In this document: piece after piece, positions 1 through 59,102 of the stretch | Layout of the letters: every line of letters begins with the position of its first letter | Numbering within the stretch: position 1 is the stretch's first letter | IMG/VR virus record: IMGVR_UViG_3300020444_000002 | Span: 22,431 to 86,430 of that record | Length of the DNA stretch: 64,000 nt | Direction: 5' to 3' (one strand) | DNA from: a virus | Translations under genes and position numbers: made by a program | The notes under the pieces: model-generated | What the model was told of the DNA's origin: nothing | Seen by the model: the letters and a program-made list of their open reading frames with translations, nothing else | Database searches by the model: none

Positions 1-38
1 CTTAATCTCTTAGGATTTTTCTGTCTATATTCATTATA

Positions 39-656
39 TCAAAAGAACGGAAAGAAGTTTGAGACATTATCCTTAGTTGTTTCGTAAGAAGTTGAAGCAT
101 GTGCCGTGCCGTTCCACCCGTATGTGTATAGCGGAGAGTACAGGCTACCATCTATGTAACGATCAGTATTCTCCCCTCCCTGAACAAGACATATGCCATC
201 GAACCAAGCGGTCCCCCTGCTGGGCTGGTAAAAAGAACCCAACCCTATAAATATGGTTACTTGGCCGGAGCCGGGTACAGTCTTCTGGACTAGCCAACGT
301 AATTCTCCAGTCCCTGAAAAAGCTGCACCCTGCAAATTACCACCACCGGCACTTGTATCAGCAATAACCCAATGCGCATCTCCAACAACGCTATCGACCT
401 TTATATAGCCAGAAACATAAACAGTAGCACCGGGCGTTAGACCTGTAATTGTCTTCTTTATGCCAGAATCTATATTCGTAGTGGAAGATATTTTCCAAGA
501 CTTGGAACCGTAATTAGACCAGTCCGTGGCCGGACCCTTATATGTGAGACTACCACTGGTGTGATAATTCGTCCAGTTAGAAGGGGTAACGCCAGAACTA
601 GCTGTATCGTTTTCAAAGCTAGGATTGTTAACACGGTTAGTCCTTGTTGTTGGCAT
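39..656 (-). CDS. Virion/tail protein with carbohydrate-binding-like (CBM4/9-type) domain
   Basis: N-x-x-N-P-S-F-E start of a CBM-like beta sandwich; last gene of a contiguous tail operon. Confidence 0.55.
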   Translation of the reverse strand: MPTTRTNRVNNPSFENDTASSGVTPSNWTNYHTSGSLTYKGPATDWSNYGSKSWKISSTTNIDSGIKKTITGLTPGATVYVSGYIKVDSVVGDAHWVIADTSAGGGNLQGAAFSGTGELRWLVQKTVPGSGQVTIFIGLGSFYQPSRGTAWFDGICLVQGGENTDRYIDGSLYSPLYTYGWNGTAHASTSYETTKDNVSNFFPFF

Positions 657-2417
657 TTAAGCCTCCACGCCTACGGACAACACATCCCAGCAGCTATCCT
701 CATCGTTGAACATGATGCCTATATACAATGTTTTGTTGTTGATGCTAGTTGTCGGTAATTCTACTCCACTCATTTCCCTGTAGCTACCGTTCCAGTAAAA
801 TTCCCATGGGCCATTACCGTCATCTTTTATCCTTAGTATCATCTTTTGCCCCTCGAACCCACTATCAGGTACAGCGACAAGGGTATCTTCTGATAGCGCT
901 GTTACTATGTGTGTACCATACTGACCGCCTGGGGCTAGAAGCCCACCTGTTGTCGCTTCTTTAAACACAGACACTGGTTGAAGTTGACCCTCGTTGTAGT
1001 ACAATTTTCCGTCTGTGCCAATACGGAATATAGATATACCACGAGAAAGCGTTATCTCCCTGACGCTAGAGGAAAGAACATCTGTTATCTTAAACTCAAA
1101 ATCGAATACCTTGCTGTTGTCTAGGTTTAGTGTAAATGGTGTTGTTGTTACTTCACCAGTAGAGGTATTAAACGAGCTTGCAACATTTGTCCAACTGCCC
1201 CATGTGCCACCAGCTTCACGGTACCTGTATTGGATGCCGTTTGTATCATCTACATCATTTTTAGTGACGCCTCCGACACTTATTAGATTAGCGCTACCAG
1301 ATATACTGACATTTGTTGTTGACTCGAAGCTATTTTGCCTTTCTATATCTACCACAATATCAGGGTTGAAGTATGGCACGACAGTAACATTCATCGTAGC
1401 ATCTGTCTTTTTACCGCGACTATCCTGTGCTGTTACCGTTAATGTTTGGTCACCGCCATAGGCGATAACACCAAAGTCATTTACCACATCAGAATCAGAG
1501 GAATAGGGCTGTTCAGCGCTAACACCCGCTAAGTTGAATAGATACTTAGCCATTGTTGCACTCTCTTGTGCTACGGCCTTGTCAGCAACTGCAACTGTTG
1601 CTTCTACAGTTGACTTACCGAAAATTGTGTATTGGTCATTACCGGTTATAGAAACTGTCGTAGCGTTTGTGTCTTTATAGCTGATCGTAGAGAATATTGG
1701 ATTCTGCTCGTCACTAGGTATTCTAAATGTTCTCGTAATGTCCTCTACGCCAATTTGGCTACCACCACTATAAGTCCTGAGCCTAAACACCATATCGGTA
1801 CTTGTACTATTAGGAATGATAGAGCAGATACTTGAAACATCCGAACTGTCTAATGTGAATGTTTGGCTCGAACCAACACTAGTAAACTGCTTCCATATGC
1901 TGTCACCATTGAACCTGTATATCTGTAGGGTGTGCGTGAAGGAGCTAGAAGCCCTATTCGTATATACTGTTATTGATTCACCGTCAGTTATTTCGTAACT
2001 AGACTTGTTTGAAGTTGGGGTAGACGCACGAGGGATTGTTGGAAGACTCGAACTGCCGCTCTTACTTATATCACCATATGAGTACAGCCAACCATTAATG
2101 TTGTAGCTAAACGACTTAGAGCCATCCGAACTATGCGAAATAGTTTTTGTGCCACTCTTTAGCTCATACTTCGTACCGTTAGGGATTGTGATATTTGAAT
2201 AGGTACCAGAACCAATACTAGAACCATTTATCTTACTAGAATCATATATCTTTATAGCATTAGAGTACCAAGAAGGTGTCGCACCGCTCGAACGAACACC
2301 AGCCTGCCAAGATATAGTAGACGTGTTGTTAGAAACACTTTGACTTTGCAGTTGCCAGTCTAAATAGAAAGCAGTGTAATTGTAATAGCCACTTGTAATA
2401 CTTCCTGATGTTGCCAT
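657..2417 (-). CDS. Siphovirus minor tail / host-specificity protein (DUF859-like)
   Basis: N-terminal MATSG..W...SQS...N.S.I and LPTIPRAS motifs typical of DUF859 proteins; S/T-rich beta protein. Confidence 0.7.
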   Translation of the reverse strand: MATSGSITSGYYNYTAFYLDWQLQSQSVSNNTSTISWQAGVRSSGATPSWYSNAIKIYDSSKINGSSIGSGTYSNITIPNGTKYELKSGTKTISHSSDGSKSFSYNINGWLYSYGDISKSGSSSLPTIPRASTPTSNKSSYEITDGESITVYTNRASSSFTHTLQIYRFNGDSIWKQFTSVGSSQTFTLDSSDVSSICSIIPNSTSTDMVFRLRTYSGGSQIGVEDITRTFRIPSDEQNPIFSTISYKDTNATTVSITGNDQYTIFGKSTVEATVAVADKAVAQESATMAKYLFNLAGVSAEQPYSSDSDVVNDFGVIAYGGDQTLTVTAQDSRGKKTDATMNVTVVPYFNPDIVVDIERQNSFESTTNVSISGSANLISVGGVTKNDVDDTNGIQYRYREAGGTWGSWTNVASSFNTSTGEVTTTPFTLNLDNSKVFDFEFKITDVLSSSVREITLSRGISIFRIGTDGKLYYNEGQLQPVSVFKEATTGGLLAPGGQYGTHIVTALSEDTLVAVPDSGFEGQKMILRIKDDGNGPWEFYWNGSYREMSGVELPTTSINNKTLYIGIMFNDEDSCWDVLSVGVEA

Positions 2418-33864: not shown

Positions 33865-34878
33865 TTATTCTACCTTTTTCTTCTTATGGTTGTCAAGTAT
33901 TATGTCCGTTCTTTCGTTGGAGAACTTTAGTCTCTGAGAAACGCCGACATTGATGTAGTTTGTAAGTTTGTTACGCGAAACATTTGGTTTATCTATGAAA
34001 GACAAACCGTTCCAGCCCAGCAATTGCCTCCACGCCTCATCCACAGTGTATTCTATGTCTGGCACGAAAAATTCTACCCCCTCAAATTCTGGGTATATGT
34101 CTAACACGAGAGCCATTTCTGGCAATATACGGACAAGAAGCCCCATTTTCTGTAACTCAAGAATACCAGTGTCACGATGCTTTGACATCAACAACTTATC
34201 CAACTCCTGCACCCAACGCTCCACCGACACATCGTAAATACGGTCTGCAAGCTGGCGAGCCTTACCGATAAAGTTAGGGTCAATAGTGAAGCCATATCTC
34301 GCAGCGAATCGTGCAGCGCGAAGCATGCGCAGTGGGTCTTCCTGGATTCTATCCTTGTCATTGCCGACTGTAACAATCTGCTTAGAGTGAATATGCAACT
34401 TGCCACCATATGGGTCATAGATTGTTCCATCTGGACGAAGCACCATGGCGTTCATAGTGAAGTCACGACGAGCTAAATCTTCGTCTAAAGAAGGCACAAA
34501 CTGGACTTCTGGCTTGCGAGACTTGTTAGTGTATACTTCTGAGCGGAAGGTTGTTACTTCAACGTACTCATATACTGTCTTTTCTGACCAATATTCCTCA
34601 TTCACCTCGTCTTCTTCGCTGTAGTACTCTTCGTTGACAGTTACCACATATGGCACCTTAAACCCAATAGTGCCAAATTTCTTGCCGATTGCATAGGATT
34701 TACGTCCAGCCTCTTTTACCTTAGCCTCAATATCATCAGGAAGCATAGAAGTAGTGAAGTCGTAATCTTTTGGCTCATTTCCCATAACTACATCACGAAC
34801 AGAACCGCCAACAAGATACACCTCATCAGTTCCGAGGATTTCAATTACTTGTTTTTGTATTGCTAATGCTTTTTCCAT
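33865..34878 (-). CDS. cca: Class II tRNA nucleotidyltransferase (CCA-adding/poly(A) polymerase family)
   Basis: LVGGSVRD, DYD, EVTTFR, DLARRDFTMNA, EDPLRMLRAARF. Confidence 0.9.
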   Translation of the reverse strand: MEKALAIQKQVIEILGTDEVYLVGGSVRDVVMGNEPKDYDFTTSMLPDDIEAKVKEAGRKSYAIGKKFGTIGFKVPYVVTVNEEYYSEEDEVNEEYWSEKTVYEYVEVTTFRSEVYTNKSRKPEVQFVPSLDEDLARRDFTMNAMVLRPDGTIYDPYGGKLHIHSKQIVTVGNDKDRIQEDPLRMLRAARFAARYGFTIDPNFIGKARQLADRIYDVSVERWVQELDKLLMSKHRDTGILELQKMGLLVRILPEMALVLDIYPEFEGVEFFVPDIEYTVDEAWRQLLGWNGLSFIDKPNVSRNKLTNYINVGVSQRLKFSNERTDIILDNHKKKKVE

Positions 34879-38819: not shown

Positions 38820-40106
38820 CTATTCAACTTTTCCTTCTTCTTCCATATCAAGGGTACCATCGGCAACTGCTTGGTTGTCATGACCAACAAATGTCGCACT
38901 CTTGCATTTAAGTGTAAATGGAGCAATCCCCTCTGCGCGAATTACTACGCCCTCATCACATGGAGTATCTTTATCTAATGGGACAGCCTGTGGATAGCCG
39001 TCCTCTTTATATCTATGTAGTGTTTCATGGCCAGCAAAGTCAGCCCATTCTTCTGGCTTGAAGTCTTTATATTTCCCCCTCCACAGCAACGGAACAACCT
39101 TTAAATCACGGTCGCGACAAAACTCTACAATCTGGTCGTAACTCATGTCCAAAACAACACCCTCTGGGTTAATTGTTGCAACACGATACACATATAGCTC
39201 TGCAAGACCCTGTGGCACTTGGTATGTGTACTTACTCTGCAATGGCGCACCGTCAGCAGTCCAACCAACTAGTTCCCCATAAACAAGATAGCCTTTTGGA
39301 ATCTTACCAACCAGTTTCTCTCCCTCTGTAGACCAAATATCAGTATCATAGAAGTGAACATGAGTAGGGTTATTTTTATCTTTAATAACTCTACGGCTAC
39401 CGTACACATAATCATACTCCCTGTCTACAACAGTTACACCGACCTTATGTGCAATCTTTTCGAGACGCGATAACTTACGGTGAACAATCGTATTGGCGAT
39501 ACGAATTGAAGTACCGTGCAACTTCTGTGTAACTGTTACTTCTTTTTCCTCCGGGATTACATGGCTATACTTGAAGTAATTATCTGTATCATAGTGTTGT
39601 GGCAGGAACTTTTCATCAACACGGCTAAATATTTTTTTGTTCTTTTCTAGCACCCTCTCTTTATGCGTGCGCTTACGAACAAACTTACGGCAGATTTCAT
39701 GGTCGCCAATACGGTCAAAAGTGTCACCCTCTTTGAATTGCGATAAATCTAACCTTTTAATATAAGACAACGAATCAAGCCCGACAATTAGCGCATCTGA
39801 ACGATGCCCGCGCAATTTTAGTGAGCGAACATGACGGTTGTCCTCTAGGTAGCCAGATTGTGACTGGTCTTCGTTTTTGTCGTTATGGCGGTGCAGGTTA
39901 TTCCTGTAGGCAAATTCCTCAGATAATTGCGTACCAGCAGTGAATACTAATGCAAGCTCTCCATAATCAGAGTCTTTAGCGACAAGAGCCTGGCTTCCCA
40001 GCACTTGAAGACCTACAAGGTTGTCTAGACCTTCTAGGGCCACAGGTGACGGCAAGCGCACTATAACACCTGCGTAATCTTTGTTATCCGGTTCAAGTAA
40101 TTTCAT
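38820..40106 (-). CDS. RNA ligase (Rnl2/DRB0094-like) with N-terminal OB-like domain
   Basis: Motif I QKLHGTS, YGE, EGVV, LKCKS; adjacent to Pnkp. Confidence 0.82.
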   Translation of the reverse strand: MKLLEPDNKDYAGVIVRLPSPVALEGLDNLVGLQVLGSQALVAKDSDYGELALVFTAGTQLSEEFAYRNNLHRHNDKNEDQSQSGYLEDNRHVRSLKLRGHRSDALIVGLDSLSYIKRLDLSQFKEGDTFDRIGDHEICRKFVRKRTHKERVLEKNKKIFSRVDEKFLPQHYDTDNYFKYSHVIPEEKEVTVTQKLHGTSIRIANTIVHRKLSRLEKIAHKVGVTVVDREYDYVYGSRRVIKDKNNPTHVHFYDTDIWSTEGEKLVGKIPKGYLVYGELVGWTADGAPLQSKYTYQVPQGLAELYVYRVATINPEGVVLDMSYDQIVEFCRDRDLKVVPLLWRGKYKDFKPEEWADFAGHETLHRYKEDGYPQAVPLDKDTPCDEGVVIRAEGIAPFTLKCKSATFVGHDNQAVADGTLDMEEEGKVE

Positions 40107-51516: not shown

Positions 51517-51855
51517 TGGTGGAGATGGAGGGAACTGCCCCCTCGTGTCCTGAACGCACAACTAGATTTCTGTTACAAGCTTATCCAGTTACTACTGGCA
51601 AAAGAAAGAGTGTGACACCACCAAGCCTTTTTTAGGCTAAAAGGCTAAACCGTCCCCTGCGGAACCACCTAGTCATACGGGCTAGGACGTTCGCGTGATT
51701 AAACCAGTGCGAAGGCTGGTGCAGGCGCAAACAGTTTTTTAATCTGTGCGACTACCGAGTTGAATGCTTTTGCATTTATAATGAAACTTTTAAGTTAGTC
51801 AAACTACTTGCTTACTAGTCGTTAAAATTCAAGGTCGAAATCTATATTCATCCCC
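51517..51855 (-). ncRNA. ssrA: tmRNA
   Basis: 5' GGGGATG...TTCGAC, 3' CATCTCCACCA with G3:U70; ATAAAT-GCA resume site; tag AKAFNSVVAQIKKLFAPAPAFALV*; own TTGACC/TATAAT promoter. Confidence 0.93.
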
Positions 51856-56933: not shown

Positions 56934-57007
56934 TGGCAGGCAGTGAAGGTAACGCTCCCTCGTCTGTGGGTTTGGAATCCACTATTCTGCTATTGAACTA
57001 ACCACCT
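56934..57007 (-). tRNA. tRNA-Trp(CCA)
   Basis: GTGG(A)-TT-CCA-AA-(C)CCAC; atypical T-loop; GCCA. Confidence 0.88.
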
Positions 57008-57011
57008 GTAT

Positions 57012-57392
57012 TTGTAAGGCTTTGTTGATTTGTACCTTACTTCACCGATACCTAACGTAACATGTACAGAAGGCTCAAATCGGGAACAAATCCGGCGAGA
57101 GCTTTTGTTGGTACTCTCGTATGAGTGCGATGCCGAGGGGTGTTCGCTTATTCCTTCCTCGACCCTTACTAGTCTAGAGCTAGCAGATACGGCAGCGAAG
57201 CCGTTCTACACAACCATGCAGACGTCTGGCTATTCCAACATCAGTGTACAGAGCGTAGCCATAACCTACGATGTCTTAAACGCGCACGACCACTCGCCAC
57301 CCATCACGGTTTACCAGTCCCCTTGGGGGGTCACTTATAGCCCACTGCTGCTGTCCTACCGTGCCGAAGCCTTGTCCGTCATTGCGCTTATA
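57012..57392 (-). ncRNA. Candidate large structured ncRNA at the head of the tRNA operon (about 380 nt)
   Basis: GC-richer, no credible ORF, several hairpins (CCCC/GGGG, CGTAG/CTACG, ACGGC/GCCGT, CGAGG/CCTCG, CGAGAG/CTCTCG). Confidence 0.6.
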
Positions 57393-57414
57393 TTTATATT
57401 ATACCTAAATTGTT

Positions 57415-57447
57415 AAAGAAAAAGCAACCTCTTTTTAGGAGGCTGCT
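57415..57447 (-). terminator. Intrinsic terminator of attenuator 1
   Basis: AGCAGCCTC-CTAAAAA-GAGGTTGCT then TTTTCTTT. Confidence 0.85.
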
Positions 57448-57482
57448 CGGAGGTTTTTGTTTTCTATACTACACTGAGAAAA

Positions 57483-57560
57483 TTATGTCCGAGCGCCAAC
57501 CAAAAAGCTATCTGGATTCCAGAGCTGTGACGGCTGATGTTGTGTACATAATTCACTCAT
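57483..57560 (-). CDS. Leader peptide 1, MSELCTQHQPSQLWNPDSFLVGART
   Basis: ATG 6 nt after TATAAT (TTGTGT-N17-TATAAT); 3' end overlaps the antiterminator arm. Confidence 0.85.
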   Translation of the reverse strand: MSELCTQHQPSQLWNPDSFLVGART

Positions 57561-57610
57561 ACTTCTATTATACACCATCGTGTTTTAAAACACAAGCGTT
57601 TTTTCAATTT

Positions 57611-57634
57611 TGGTGACCGTTAGAAGATATGCCC
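57611..57634 (-). pseudogene. Internally deleted tRNA remnant
   Basis: GGGCATA-TC-TTC-TAACGGT fused directly to CACCA. Confidence 0.5.
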
Positions 57635-57637
57635 ATA

Positions 57638-57723
57638 TGGTGGCGCAGGAGGGAATCGCACCCACTCGACCCGAAGGACTGGTTTTACAGACCAGCTCGT
57701 CTGCTTTAACGAATTACTACGCC
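57638..57723 (-). tRNA. tRNA-Tyr(GTA)
   Basis: CTGGT-CT-GTA-AA-ACCAG, long variable arm, ACCA. Confidence 0.9.
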
Positions 57724-57729
57724 ATAGTT

Positions 57730-57804
57730 TGGTGACCTATGTGGGAGTTGAACCCACCTCTACAGCTTGAAGGGCTGTTATCCTTTCCGATAGACGAATA
57801 GGCC
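57730..57804 (-). tRNA. tRNA-Glu(TTC)
   Basis: ACAGC-CC-TTC-AA-GCTGT; ACCA. Confidence 0.92.
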
Positions 57805-57812
57805 ATGATGTT

Positions 57813-57836
57813 AAAAAATCGCCTCTTGGGGCGACT
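57813..57836 (-). terminator. Intrinsic terminator of attenuator 2
   Basis: AGTCGCC-CCAAGA-GGCGATT followed by T-run, just 5' of tRNA-Glu. Confidence 0.8.
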
Positions 57837-57865
57837 ACGGTTTTGACAAAAAGAAGAAGCCCCTG

Positions 57866-57910
57866 CTAAGAGTTATATTCTTCCTCGTAATAGCTTACTG
57901 AATTTGTCAT
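57866..57910 (-). CDS. Leader peptide 2, MTNSVSYYEEEYNS
   Basis: ATG 6 nt after TATAAT (TTGCGT-N17-TATAAT); TAT TAC GAG GAA GAA TAT run. Confidence 0.88.
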   Translation of the reverse strand: MTNSVSYYEEEYNS

Positions 57911-57998
57911 ACTACCATTATAACGTATTAGCCAAAATAACGCAACATTTTTATTAAAACGCTCTTGTTTTTTAATGCAACTTGCTTCATAATTAATA

Positions 57999-59102
57999 GT
58001 GAACATAAACAGGGGAAATAAGTTGAAAGAAAAACCGCTAAATATAAACAGCTACTACAGTAAAGTAGTTGGTGTAACATTTGAGGGCCGTCAGGATGTT
58101 ATAGGACTTATGGACGGTAGTGAGCAGTTGCGGTTCCGTCGAGAGCCAGAAAACGAATATGACAAAAATGCTGTTGCGGTTGACGCTCTTGTAACACATG
58201 TAGCGCCAGAACCAGAATGGCTTACTATTGGTTACATTGCAAAAGACAAAAACAAAGAGCTGGCAGAAGTACTTACTGATGGCAAATATGCTTCCATAAA
58301 AGTGAGTGATATAACGGGTGGTGGAGACAAGAGTTTCGGGGTTAATGTTCATATTGAACACGAACGAATAATCAAAAAACACCGTTCTGAAAATGCAGTT
58401 TTAGTAAAAGACTTTTTTGGCAATGAAATATTCTACAACCCTGTCGCACATGAATATACAAATGCACTAGGTGAAGTCTACCTTTCGGGGAGTGCCTATG
58501 CATCAGGTGAAGAATTTGATAGTGAATTCTGGGCCAAGAACACCGTTGACCGTTACAACCTACCAGATGAAGTAAAAGCTCAAATAATAGATATGTGGAA
58601 TATAAACGGTGAAGCGAGCCGCAGCTTCGGGACTGCTGTTCACGCAGCAATCGAACTTTATGGGAAGTACCGAGGGCTGGCAAAAGTTATTGACACAGAC
58701 TTAAAGACAAAAAAACGCAAAATGCTTGACTCTAAGACAGAGAAAAACTCTGCACTAAGTAAAATACCCTATTTAAGGGACGCAACCCTAAAATTCTTTA
58801 ACAAAGAACGTGCAGAAGAAAAAGCGGTTTATGAGGTGCTAGTAGTTGACCATGAACATAAACGCGCTGGTCGTATTGATCGTCTGGTGATAAAGGATAA
58901 CGGTACATTTGAGGTTCGGGACATGAAGACGAACTTTAAGCTTCCAAAAAAAGAGAGAGACGGCTACCAAAAGCAGCTAAGCTTCTACGCCGATATAATA
59001 TTAGCGAACGGTGGAACTCTTGGCGACAACCCAATAATGCTGCATCACTGGAAGGATGGAGAATGGGTCGATGTAAAGCTAGGAAAGATTGATACATTAT
59101 AA
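57999..59102 (+). CDS. HIRAN domain fused to PD-(D/E)XK exonuclease
   Basis: VVGVTF..RQ...REPENEYDKNAVAV...IGY; GTAVH..IE, AGRIDRL, DMKT, QLSFY. Confidence 0.85.
   Translation: MNINRGNKLKEKPLNINSYYSKVVGVTFEGRQDVIGLMDGSEQLRFRREPENEYDKNAVAVDALVTHVAPEPEWLTIGYIAKDKNKELAEVLTDGKYASIKVSDITGGGDKSFGVNVHIEHERIIKKHRSENAVLVKDFFGNEIFYNPVAHEYTNALGEVYLSGSAYASGEEFDSEFWAKNTVDRYNLPDEVKAQIIDMWNINGEASRSFGTAVHAAIELYGKYRGLAKVIDTDLKTKKRKMLDSKTEKNSALSKIPYLRDATLKFFNKERAEEKAVYEVLVVDHEHKRAGRIDRLVIKDNGTFEVRDMKTNFKLPKKERDGYQKQLSFYADIILANGGTLGDNPIMLHHWKDGEWVDVKLGKIDTL

Follow-up and report, generated by a model that had tools for sequence, protein, structure and literature searches.

Introduction

Leader-peptide transcription attenuators control several enterobacterial amino-acid operons, with trpL, hisL, pheL and the multivalent thrL and ilvL as their leaders, and for 45 years attenuation has been a known mode of control of operons for amino-acid biosynthesis and for synthetases. 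Here we describe a short leader open reading frame (ORF), MTNSVSYYEEEYNS, which lies between a promoter and an intrinsic terminator in front of the genes of tRNA-Glu and tRNA-Tyr in the virus contig IMGVR_UViG_3300020444_000002 of IMG/VR. Comparative and structural evidence indicates that this leader, which heads one of the three tRNA operons of the phage (operon B), is likely to be a working ribosome-mediated attenuator of tRNA-Glu and tRNA-Tyr transcription, and the phage probably makes these two tRNAs only when ribosomes run short of them. The stretch of DNA analyzed, hereafter called the window, is the last 64 kb of this linear contig of 86,430 bp, which is estimated to be 87% complete. 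Coordinates are window positions unless contig positions are stated, and the window ends where the contig ends, hence there is no next window.

The phage leader resembles the enterobacterial attenuators in several respects. Its regulatory codons are clustered in a short ORF, three pairings of the 1:2, 2:3 and 3:4 type exclude each other, the terminator just precedes the regulated genes and the stop codon adjoins region 2, and the position of the ribosome would decide the outcome. All the structural parts of an attenuator are found at the locus, namely an ORF at the predicted start of the transcript, a cluster of cognate codons, a terminator, an antiterminator sharing bases with it and a 1:2 partner, while in silico a ribosome at the regulatory codons leads to read-through and one at the stop codon to termination. 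The two differ in what is regulated: the enterobacterial systems govern biosynthetic enzymes, whereas the phage leader would govern tRNAs, with feedback through tRNA supply. Biosynthetic enzymes or aminoacyl-tRNA synthetases, the classical genes behind an attenuator, are not what follows here, where only tRNA-Glu and tRNA-Tyr are found, and tRNA genes as the output of an attenuator are the novel aspect. Also unlike the enterobacterial leaders, it is predicted to lie on a leaderless mRNA without a Shine-Dalgarno sequence, is carried by a phage and shows no relationship to them in sequence or in Rfam. None of the Rfam leader families (His, Trp, Thr, Leu and others) reached its gathering score in the window, and a search of positions 57790–57960 at E-values up to 10 gave only snoRNA noise (E of at least 1.1).

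T-box riboswitches are untranslated leaders of ~200 nucleotides (nt) that bind uncharged tRNA via a specifier codon and the conserved T-box sequence. The phage leader likewise appears to be a terminator/antiterminator switch answering to the state of specific tRNAs, but with ~95 nt and an ORF it is too short for a T-box. A T-box was rejected as a candidate, as Rfam gave no T-box match either at the gathering threshold over the window or at E-values up to 10 over the leader.

Leader-peptide attenuation has also been treated in a modelling paper (PMC1183508). In mycobacteria, polycysteine leaderless short ORFs, termed the "Cys ribulon", act on translation according to the abstract of a preprint (bioRxiv 10.1101/834739). 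As described there, they share with the phage leader a leaderless short ORF, a run of codons for a single amino acid and the role of a stalling sensor for the operon behind, whereas the phage leader reads two amino acids, resides in a phage and is followed by an intrinsic terminator before non-coding tRNA genes. The feature that defines the Cys ribulon in that text is thus absent, since the downstream genes are tRNAs without a ribosome-binding site and the switch is an intrinsic terminator. The nearest published conditionally expressed accessory tRNA array that we found is the trn operon of Anabaena PCC 7120, a long, stress-induced array whose control is attributed to the repressor TrcR (PMC8421152, PMC10272220). 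Like operon B as proposed here, the trn operon is an accessory tRNA array kept off by default and turned on by impaired translation; it differs in using a protein repressor and in being a bacterial array that is not phage-borne. The word stem "attenuat" occurs in neither report; PMC8421152 has neither "leader" nor "terminator", and PMC10272220 has no "leader peptide". Full-text searches of a literature collection that lacks most subscription journals found no report of tRNA genes attenuated through a leader peptide, whether of phages or of other organisms, and none of phage tRNA genes regulated by tRNA supply.

The Leader of Operon B

Tyr and Glu codons are concentrated in the leader ORF of operon B to a degree matched by no other short ORF of the contig. 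Among the 1045 ATG-ORFs of 10–35 amino acids (aa) in all six frames of the 86-kb contig, MTNSVSYYEEEYNS alone consists of at least 46% Tyr and Glu and alone contains a run of six such residues. In the long ORFs of the phage, where Tyr and Glu together amount to 10% of the residues, none of 17,083 six-residue windows is made up of E and Y only. Direct reading placed the coordinates, the promoter, the ORF and the pairings named in the earlier note on the minus strand and found all of them correct (Table 1). The output that it had claimed was likewise borne out, tRNA-Glu(TTC) and tRNA-Tyr(GTA) being the sole genes that ARAGORN finds behind the terminator. The two alternatives that it had pointed to, GGGGC with GCCCC and the Glu codons with CTTCTTC, are both present, and a trp-type logic emerges from the predicted folds of 12/12 homologous leaders.

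The spacer GGTAGT (6 nt) separates the -10 box from the ATG at 57910–57908, and such a distance of 6–7 nt from TATAAT to ATG implies a leaderless mRNA. A Shine-Dalgarno sequence is absent from the leader, and initiation would have to be leaderless. Among RNA runs, none was found to contain positions 57400–58000. The unconstrained minimum free energy (MFE) structure of the leader holds both the GAGGAAGAA:UUCUUCUUU helix and the terminator hairpin (-23.8 kcal/mol, z = -1.96, 8/200 shuffles as good), and the terminator hairpin alone amounts to -9.1 kcal/mol. In these folds region 2 has two alternatives: it pairs with region 1 or, via GGGGC, with region 3. The T-run of the terminator ends at 57813, and tRNA-Glu(TTC) begins 8 nt past it. 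Beyond tRNA-Tyr, the final gene of operon B, comes the promoter of the operon C leader. On the other side, a gene for a 367-aa exonuclease-like protein runs in the opposite direction from 57999, which makes the operon B promoter one side of a divergent pair.

Table 1. Positions of the parts of the operon B leader and composition of the three tRNA operons (window positions unless stated otherwise).
Feature	Position	Strand	Details
Promoter	57917..57945	minus	-35 TTGCGT 57945-57940, 17-nt spacer, -10 TATAAT 57922-57917, read directly
Leader ORF MTNSVSYYEEEYNS	57866..57910	minus	14 codons; stop TAG 57868-57866
Regulatory codons 7-12	57875..57892	minus	TAT TAC GAG GAA GAA TAT (Tyr Tyr Glu Glu Glu Tyr)
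Region 1	57878..57886	minus	GAGGAAGAA, the Glu codons; pairs with UUCUUCUUU in the MFE of the free RNA
Region 2	57850..57863	minus	GGGGC 57863-57859, 2 nt past the stop codon, then CUUCUUCUU
Intrinsic terminator	57813..57836	minus	stem AGUCGCC/GGCGAUU, 57836-57830 with 57823-57817, loop CCAAGA
Region 3	57832-57828	minus	GCCCC within the terminator; predicted antiterminator partner of GGGGC
tRNA-Glu (anticodon TTC)	57730..57804	minus	ARAGORN; Rfam 51.4 bits
tRNA-Tyr (anticodon GTA)	57638..57723	minus	ARAGORN; Rfam 31.6 bits, gathering score 29
Operon A	start contig position 1329	minus	leader MTKTAITTRKRTTTVAGIAMVIGGKAKL; Lys, Ile, Thr, Gly, Arg, Ile
Operon B		minus	leader MTNSVSYYEEEYNS; tRNA-Glu(TTC), tRNA-Tyr(GTA)
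Operon C	start 57595	minus	leader MSELCTQHQPSQLWNPDSFLVGART; Trp-like (Rfam only), Asp, Asn, Pro, Phe, Cys, Leu x3, Ser, His, Gln x2

Homologous Leaders in Related Phages

Positions 57380–58040 had no DNA match among GenBank phages in a search in distant mode, and relatives were obtained from metagenomic collections by three routes. A search with the RNA ligase of the phage gave the IMG/VR relatives G001, G002 (complete, 99 kb, with terminal repeats) and G004 (complete, 88 kb). G006 (complete, 104 kb) and three fragments were found through a 16-mer that is conserved in the operon A leader, and an alignment of the exonuclease adjoining operon B yielded 21 metagenome loci. Twelve distinct operon B leaders were assembled in this way, from the window, from G002, G004 and G006 and from eight metagenome contigs. 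Other searches gave no further leaders. A degenerate Y-Y-E-E-E-Y-N codon pattern had 22 matches in IMG/VR, none adjoining tRNA-Glu or tRNA-Tyr, and these were set aside as chance matches in unrelated contigs, 2/22 loci holding a tRNA-Leu. An exact 23-mer of tRNA-Glu had 0 matches in IMG/VR, while a single-protein search with the exonuclease found only genes of 29–40% identity in unrelated contigs, mostly of ~40 kb, whose tRNA regions were without a comparable leader.

The twelve leader peptides are MTNSVSYYEEEYNS in the window and MINSNTYYEEESNL, MSKTYSYEERVTE, MSNVYYSEERITD, MTSLVNYYEEEPTHIPAGA, MISSVNYYEEEYNS, MTTQNYEYEERSIA, MTASNTYYEEESNS, MNKSYTCEERVTE, MTTVNTYQEERNTYSS, MTSFTQTYLEERNTYTSGS and MSYYYEEESPTR in the relatives. 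The architecture is the same in 12/12: a promoter in the conserved position, an ATG 6–7 nt past TATAAT, an intact ORF of 12–19 codons with a Tyr/Glu core, and a hairpin with a T-run a few nt ahead of a Glu tRNA. The core takes the forms YYEEEY, YYEEES, YSYEE, YYSEE, YYEEEP, YEYEE, YQEE..Y, YLEE..Y and YYYEEE, with Y.CEE in L107. Homologs that keep Tyr/Glu codons in front of unrelated tRNAs, which the earlier note had named as grounds for giving up its proposal, did not occur (0/12 leaders).

According to ARAGORN, the first tRNA is Glu(TTC) in nine of these loci; it is Glu(TTC)-like by eye in L104 and L107, and the order in L100 is Glu(CTC), Tyr, Glu(TTC). At L104 3452–3529 ARAGORN assigns the label "SeC (tca)", the anticodon loop being that of Glu(TTC) by eye, and this gene is probably a mis-called unusual tRNA-Glu. 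A tRNA-Tyr follows in 10/10 assessable loci, the contigs of L103 and L110 ending at tRNA-Glu. In G006 (L097, 9705–10300), inspection by eye shows an insert of ~540 nt that interrupts the anticodon loop of the resident tRNA-Tyr(GTA) and holds a divergent complete tRNA-Tyr and a 120-aa ORF; neither Tyr gene is called by ARAGORN or Rfam.

The variation among the leaders has the marks of a coding sequence. Differences in leader length are whole codons, such as the TCA between both Tyr codons in G004, and synonymous codons alternate within the core from one homolog to another (TAT 17 and TAC 9; GAA 22 and GAG 11). Across the 12 leaders, Y and E account for 59/163 residues, against a frequency of 0.10 in the long ORFs of the phage, and positions outside the core are poorly conserved. 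In the group formed by G004, G006 and L107, another sequence (CCGA, within the last two codons) serves as region 1, and the Tyr/Glu core is still kept.

The Predicted Folding Switch

The effect of ribosome position was modelled by masked MFE folding. Each leader was folded as far as the second U of the U-run, and everything between its 5' end and 10 nt past the codon in the A-site was masked. The 12 leaders were compared by such per-sequence folds and not by a structure-aware alignment, because region 2 lies inside the ORF in some leaders and after it in others. In the predicted MFE structures, the terminator forms in the free RNA of 12/12 leaders and also in 12/12 when the ribosome occupies the stop codon, and every leader has a block of A-site positions at which the helix of regions 2 and 3 fully replaces it. 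In the window, this block consists of codons 6–12 (S-YYEEEY) and nothing else. Taken together, the terminator is fully lost at 45/59 Tyr/Glu codons versus 30/104 other sense codons (Fisher p = 5e-9, a value that is indicative only since the sequences are related). Masks of other lengths gave 42/59 versus 35/104 (+7 nt) and 43/59 versus 29/104 (+13 nt).

As a control, the sequence upstream of the terminator was shuffled 200 times per leader with its dinucleotide content kept. For the 12 leaders in turn, a switch as good as or better than the natural one was obtained in 0, 4, 5, 26, 0, 2, 4, 6, 10, 1, 7 and 0 of 200 shuffles, with 0/200 for the window; an earlier version of the control, run on four leaders, gave 7, 7, 5 and 1 of 300. 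In every leader, region 2 either overlaps the stop codon or comes directly after it, and region 3 shares bases with the 5' arm and loop of the terminator. The two regions change together, and the sequences that pair differ among the leaders, with GGGGC/GCCCC, GGGC/GCCC, CUCGGC/GCCGAG, UCGGC/GCCGA, GCGGG/CCCGC, GGGCG/CGCCC, GCUAGG/CCUAGC and CGGC/GCCG as the pairs of regions 2 and 3. A MAFFT alignment of four sequences contains, in the antiterminator, one double change from G-C to C-G and one paired deletion of 1 nt (GGGGC/GCCCC to GGGC/GCCC).

Proposed Mechanism

From these elements the following course of events can be proposed. Transcription would start at the AUG or 1 nt before it and yield a leaderless mRNA, on which a ribosome, presumably by 70S initiation, would translate the leader while RNA polymerase approaches the hairpin and the U-run, a kinetic coupling that is likewise presumed. 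When charged tRNA-Tyr and tRNA-Glu are plentiful, the ribosome would reach the stop codon and cover GGGGC, so that the terminator forms and the tRNA genes stay silent. The outcome would be the same with no ribosome on the RNA, as the Glu codons of region 1 would pair with CUUCUUC of region 2 and the terminator would again form. A ribosome stalled on the Tyr or Glu codons, by contrast, would bury region 1 and leave region 2 free; the free GGGGC would take up GCCCC from the terminator's 5' arm and loop, which would keep the terminator from forming, and the polymerase would read through into tRNA-Glu and tRNA-Tyr. The new tRNAs would relieve the stall, which amounts to negative feedback on exactly these two isoacceptor families. 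The 1:2 hairpin, with UUUUU after it, may serve as a pause site for timing.

Concerning the signal, more tRNA cannot cure amino-acid starvation, and the sensible signal would therefore be a lack of functional tRNA-Tyr or tRNA-Glu. The trigger could be a loss of host tRNA through defense nucleases, host shut-off or decay during infection, or else poor decoding by the host. The leader would sense all charged cognate tRNA in the cell, including that made by the phage, and the control by host tRNA availability of which the earlier note spoke is something that we infer.

Other genes of the phage also concern translation. A transfer-messenger RNA (tmRNA) lies at 51517–51855 (minus; Rfam 53.1 bits), and the minus-strand genes at 38820–40106 and 33865–34878 encode an RNA ligase (phrog_968, 6e-89) and a tRNA nucleotidyltransferase, or CCA-adding enzyme (phrog_2244, 3e-55). 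These three make up a kit for the repair or rescue of the translation apparatus and suggest that damage to translation matters to the phage. Two more promoters (32754 and 27478, minus) have an ATG 6 and 7 nt past TATAAT, followed by ORFs of 61 and 91 aa. These are candidate leaderless genes and hint at leaderless expression of ordinary genes too.

Three tRNA Operons With Leaders of Their Own

The contig carries 23 tRNAs found by ARAGORN and one found by Rfam only, all on the minus strand and in three blocks, each of which is headed by a promoter, 6 nt, an ATG, a short ORF and a terminator. The isotypes are divided among the operons as T, K, A, I, R, V, G and M in A, Y and E in B, and W, D, N, P, F, C, L, S, H and Q in C, and their union is the 20 amino acids. 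Leader peptides follow this division when the residues after the start Met are assigned to the three sets. In this genome, leader A has 23/27 residues in set A, 0/27 in B and 1/27 in C; leader B has 1/13 in set A, 6/13 in B and 5/13 in C; and leader C has 5/24 in set A, 1/24 in B and 17/24 in C. The same diagonal is seen in G002, G004 and G006. Over the four genomes, the A leaders have 19–24 of 27–29 residues in their own set, the C leaders 15–22 of 23–29, and the B leaders 4–6 of 12–13 though their set comprises just two amino acids, and Y and E are almost missing from the A and C leaders (0–1 each). That a second, unrelated leader with the same logic exists, as the earlier note had it, thus holds, and there is a third.

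The operon A leader (contig 1294–1208) abounds in T, K, A, I, R, V, G and M. Val, Met, Arg(ACG), Ala and Lys(CTT) make up the far end of operon A in complete relatives; in this contig, Arg(ACG), Ala and Lys(CTT) stand at the end and a tRNA-Val-like stretch at the start. The contig break therefore lies inside operon A, which leaves the Arg/Ala/Lys block without a leader of its own and accounts for the missing next window. The prediction that this block would have a leader rich in its own amino acids was met indirectly: a leader of that composition heads operon A, of which the block is the distal end in complete relatives, and a separate leader for the block does not exist. The tRNA-Val-like stretch (contig ~45–127) is 72% identical to the tRNA-Val of G002 and is not called by ARAGORN, and tRNA-Met was not found in this contig. 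An HNH-like ORF lies downstream of tRNA-Ile(TAT) at contig 1–700 (minus).

Predicted folds of the other leaders are of the same general kind, with differences between the operons. In the C leaders, the terminator is present in the free RNA and once the ribosome has reached the 3' end of the ORF. It is lost at earlier codons in 3/4 cases; in the C leader of G002 it is partly weakened and never fully lost. Among the A leaders free of a ribosome, those of this genome (G000), G004 and G006 (3/5) fold the antiterminator and those of G002 and G001 keep part of the terminator, the full terminator appearing in all five only with the ribosome at the last 3–4 positions. Such a late terminator fits an ORF in which nearly every codon is regulatory, and the default of operon A would, on these models, be ON without translation. 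The C-terminal half of the A leader, ...AMVIRGGKAK(L/Q), is conserved with small variations in five full-length genomes (contig 1294–1157 and homologs).

Taken further, the three leaders might form a phage-borne surveillance of the whole tRNA pool, a proposal that we put forward tentatively and regard as rather doubtful at present. The 20 amino acids would be split among operons A, B and C, each gated by a leaderless test ORF of its own isotypes, and any loss of host tRNA, for example by the anticodon nuclease of a defense system or by host shut-off, would switch on exactly the replacement block. This would be an inducible counter-defense that senses the damage itself and not the defense protein, and if it exists, the RNA ligase, the CCA-adding enzyme and the tmRNA would back up the replacement blocks.

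Within operon C, the tRNA at 56937–57007 (minus) is recognized by Rfam (40.2 bits) and missed by ARAGORN, and its anticodon loop reads CCA (Trp) by eye; in G004 and G006, ARAGORN calls a tRNA-Trp at the matching place. The adjoining region 57010–57427 (minus) begins with a second promoter, TTGCTT-N18-TATAAT (57427–57398), which overlaps the operon C terminator and is followed by ~390 nt without an obvious ORF, up to the Trp-like tRNA. Blocks of this region are conserved in G002 and G004, a similar motif is found between the tRNAs of the unrelated contig L002 (7350–7460), and Rfam gave no match to the region at E-values up to 1. It may be a structured RNA of a new type tied to phage tRNA arrays.

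Objections and Alternative Explanations

Several observations weigh against an attenuator at operon B. In G006 and L107, the switch occurs at only 1/4 Tyr/Glu codons and is matched by 26 and 10 of 200 shuffles, and in L107 a Cys replaces the second Tyr of the core. The covariation of the antiterminator is weak, as 94/500 column shuffles of the four-sequence alignment reach the observed score, and the terminator stem, kept in 25/28 cells of this alignment, has no double change. The terminator itself is modest, with 7 bp that include one G-U and two A-U pairs and -9 kcal/mol. A simple consensus scan lists neither the operon B promoter nor the hairpin, the promoter because its -35 box agrees with TTGACA at just 3/6 positions; the form TTG(C/T)GT recurs in 8/21 TTGNNN-N16-18-TATAAT sites of the whole contig and so looks like the phage's own promoter form. 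S, T and N make up 64/163 leader residues, which an output of Glu and Tyr does not explain, and the Glu codons of the window double as region 1, so that RNA pairing could alone explain the conservation of their nucleotides. In the distant phage G010 (RNA ligase of 33% identity), no promoter/ATG/terminator leader precedes the 12 tRNA starts inspected. Finally, the terminase matches only Bacteroidota phages, its nearest cultured relatives, at 25–27% identity over half its length, so that the capacity of the host for leaderless initiation and intrinsic termination is assumed.

Some of these points would suit a structured 5' region that is never translated, with the hairpin as a leaky constitutive terminator or as an element for processing or stability of the tRNA precursor, and with the Tyr/Glu codons as a by-product of the purine/pyrimidine-rich GAGGAAGAA:UUCUUCUUU pairing. 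The Glu codons of the window and of its closest relatives do make up one side of a helix, and such an explanation would be in keeping with the lack of a Shine-Dalgarno sequence and with the weak covariation statistics. We nevertheless consider it unlikely. The ORF is intact in 12/12 leaders, at a fixed 6–7 nt from the -10 box and with length changes of whole codons only; the Tyr/Glu core persists in leaders of the G004 type despite their different region 1, and it contains synonymous changes. Moreover, the unrelated leaders of the two other operons mirror their tRNA sets by peptide and not by nucleotides.

A translated and working attenuator could also respond to something less specific, namely amino-acid starvation or the general speed of translation, lowered for instance by toxins, antibiotics or a shortage of ribosomes, and the predicted structure would suit such a sensor. 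Classic attenuators answer to charged tRNA and hence to the supply of amino acids, the masked folds lose the terminator at 30/104 codons other than Tyr and Glu as well, and the antiterminator is the fold that the operon A leaders adopt even when no ribosome is present. Against these points stand the concentration of Tyr/Glu codons exactly in the switch window (45/59), the possession by each of the three operons of a leader for its own isotypes, which a general sensor would not need, and the fact that extra tRNA would not cure amino-acid starvation, and a general sensor is in our judgment improbable. Least probable by far is a small functional peptide, acidic and aromatic, whose transcript ends at the hairpin while the tRNAs depend on read-through or on transcription from another site: a promoter lies directly in front of the ORF, which is conserved, but its residues outside the Y/E core are poorly conserved, its length varies from 12 to 19 residues, the 8 nt between the T-run and tRNA-Glu leave no room for a promoter, and peptide function does not predict that the composition of three types of leader should track their own tRNA genes.

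Significance for Phage Biology

Why phages carry tRNA genes, and how these are used, has been debated for decades. Recent work has linked phage tRNAs to escape from tRNA-cleaving defenses (PMC10264068, PMC11464382). With the alternatives weighed, we hold with fair confidence that the operon B leader represents a conserved new variant of ribosome-mediated attenuation, as its homologs and predicted folds indicate. The 12-member family of leaders, together with two sister families in the same genomes, offers a set of natural variants. If the attenuator works as proposed, tRNA genes can be under codon-specific feedback that is read by the ribosome, and the leader ORFs would be compact natural sensors of individual tRNA species. 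Phage tRNA biology would then have an added regulatory layer, in which phages would gauge how well the infected cell can decode and would make good only what it lacks.

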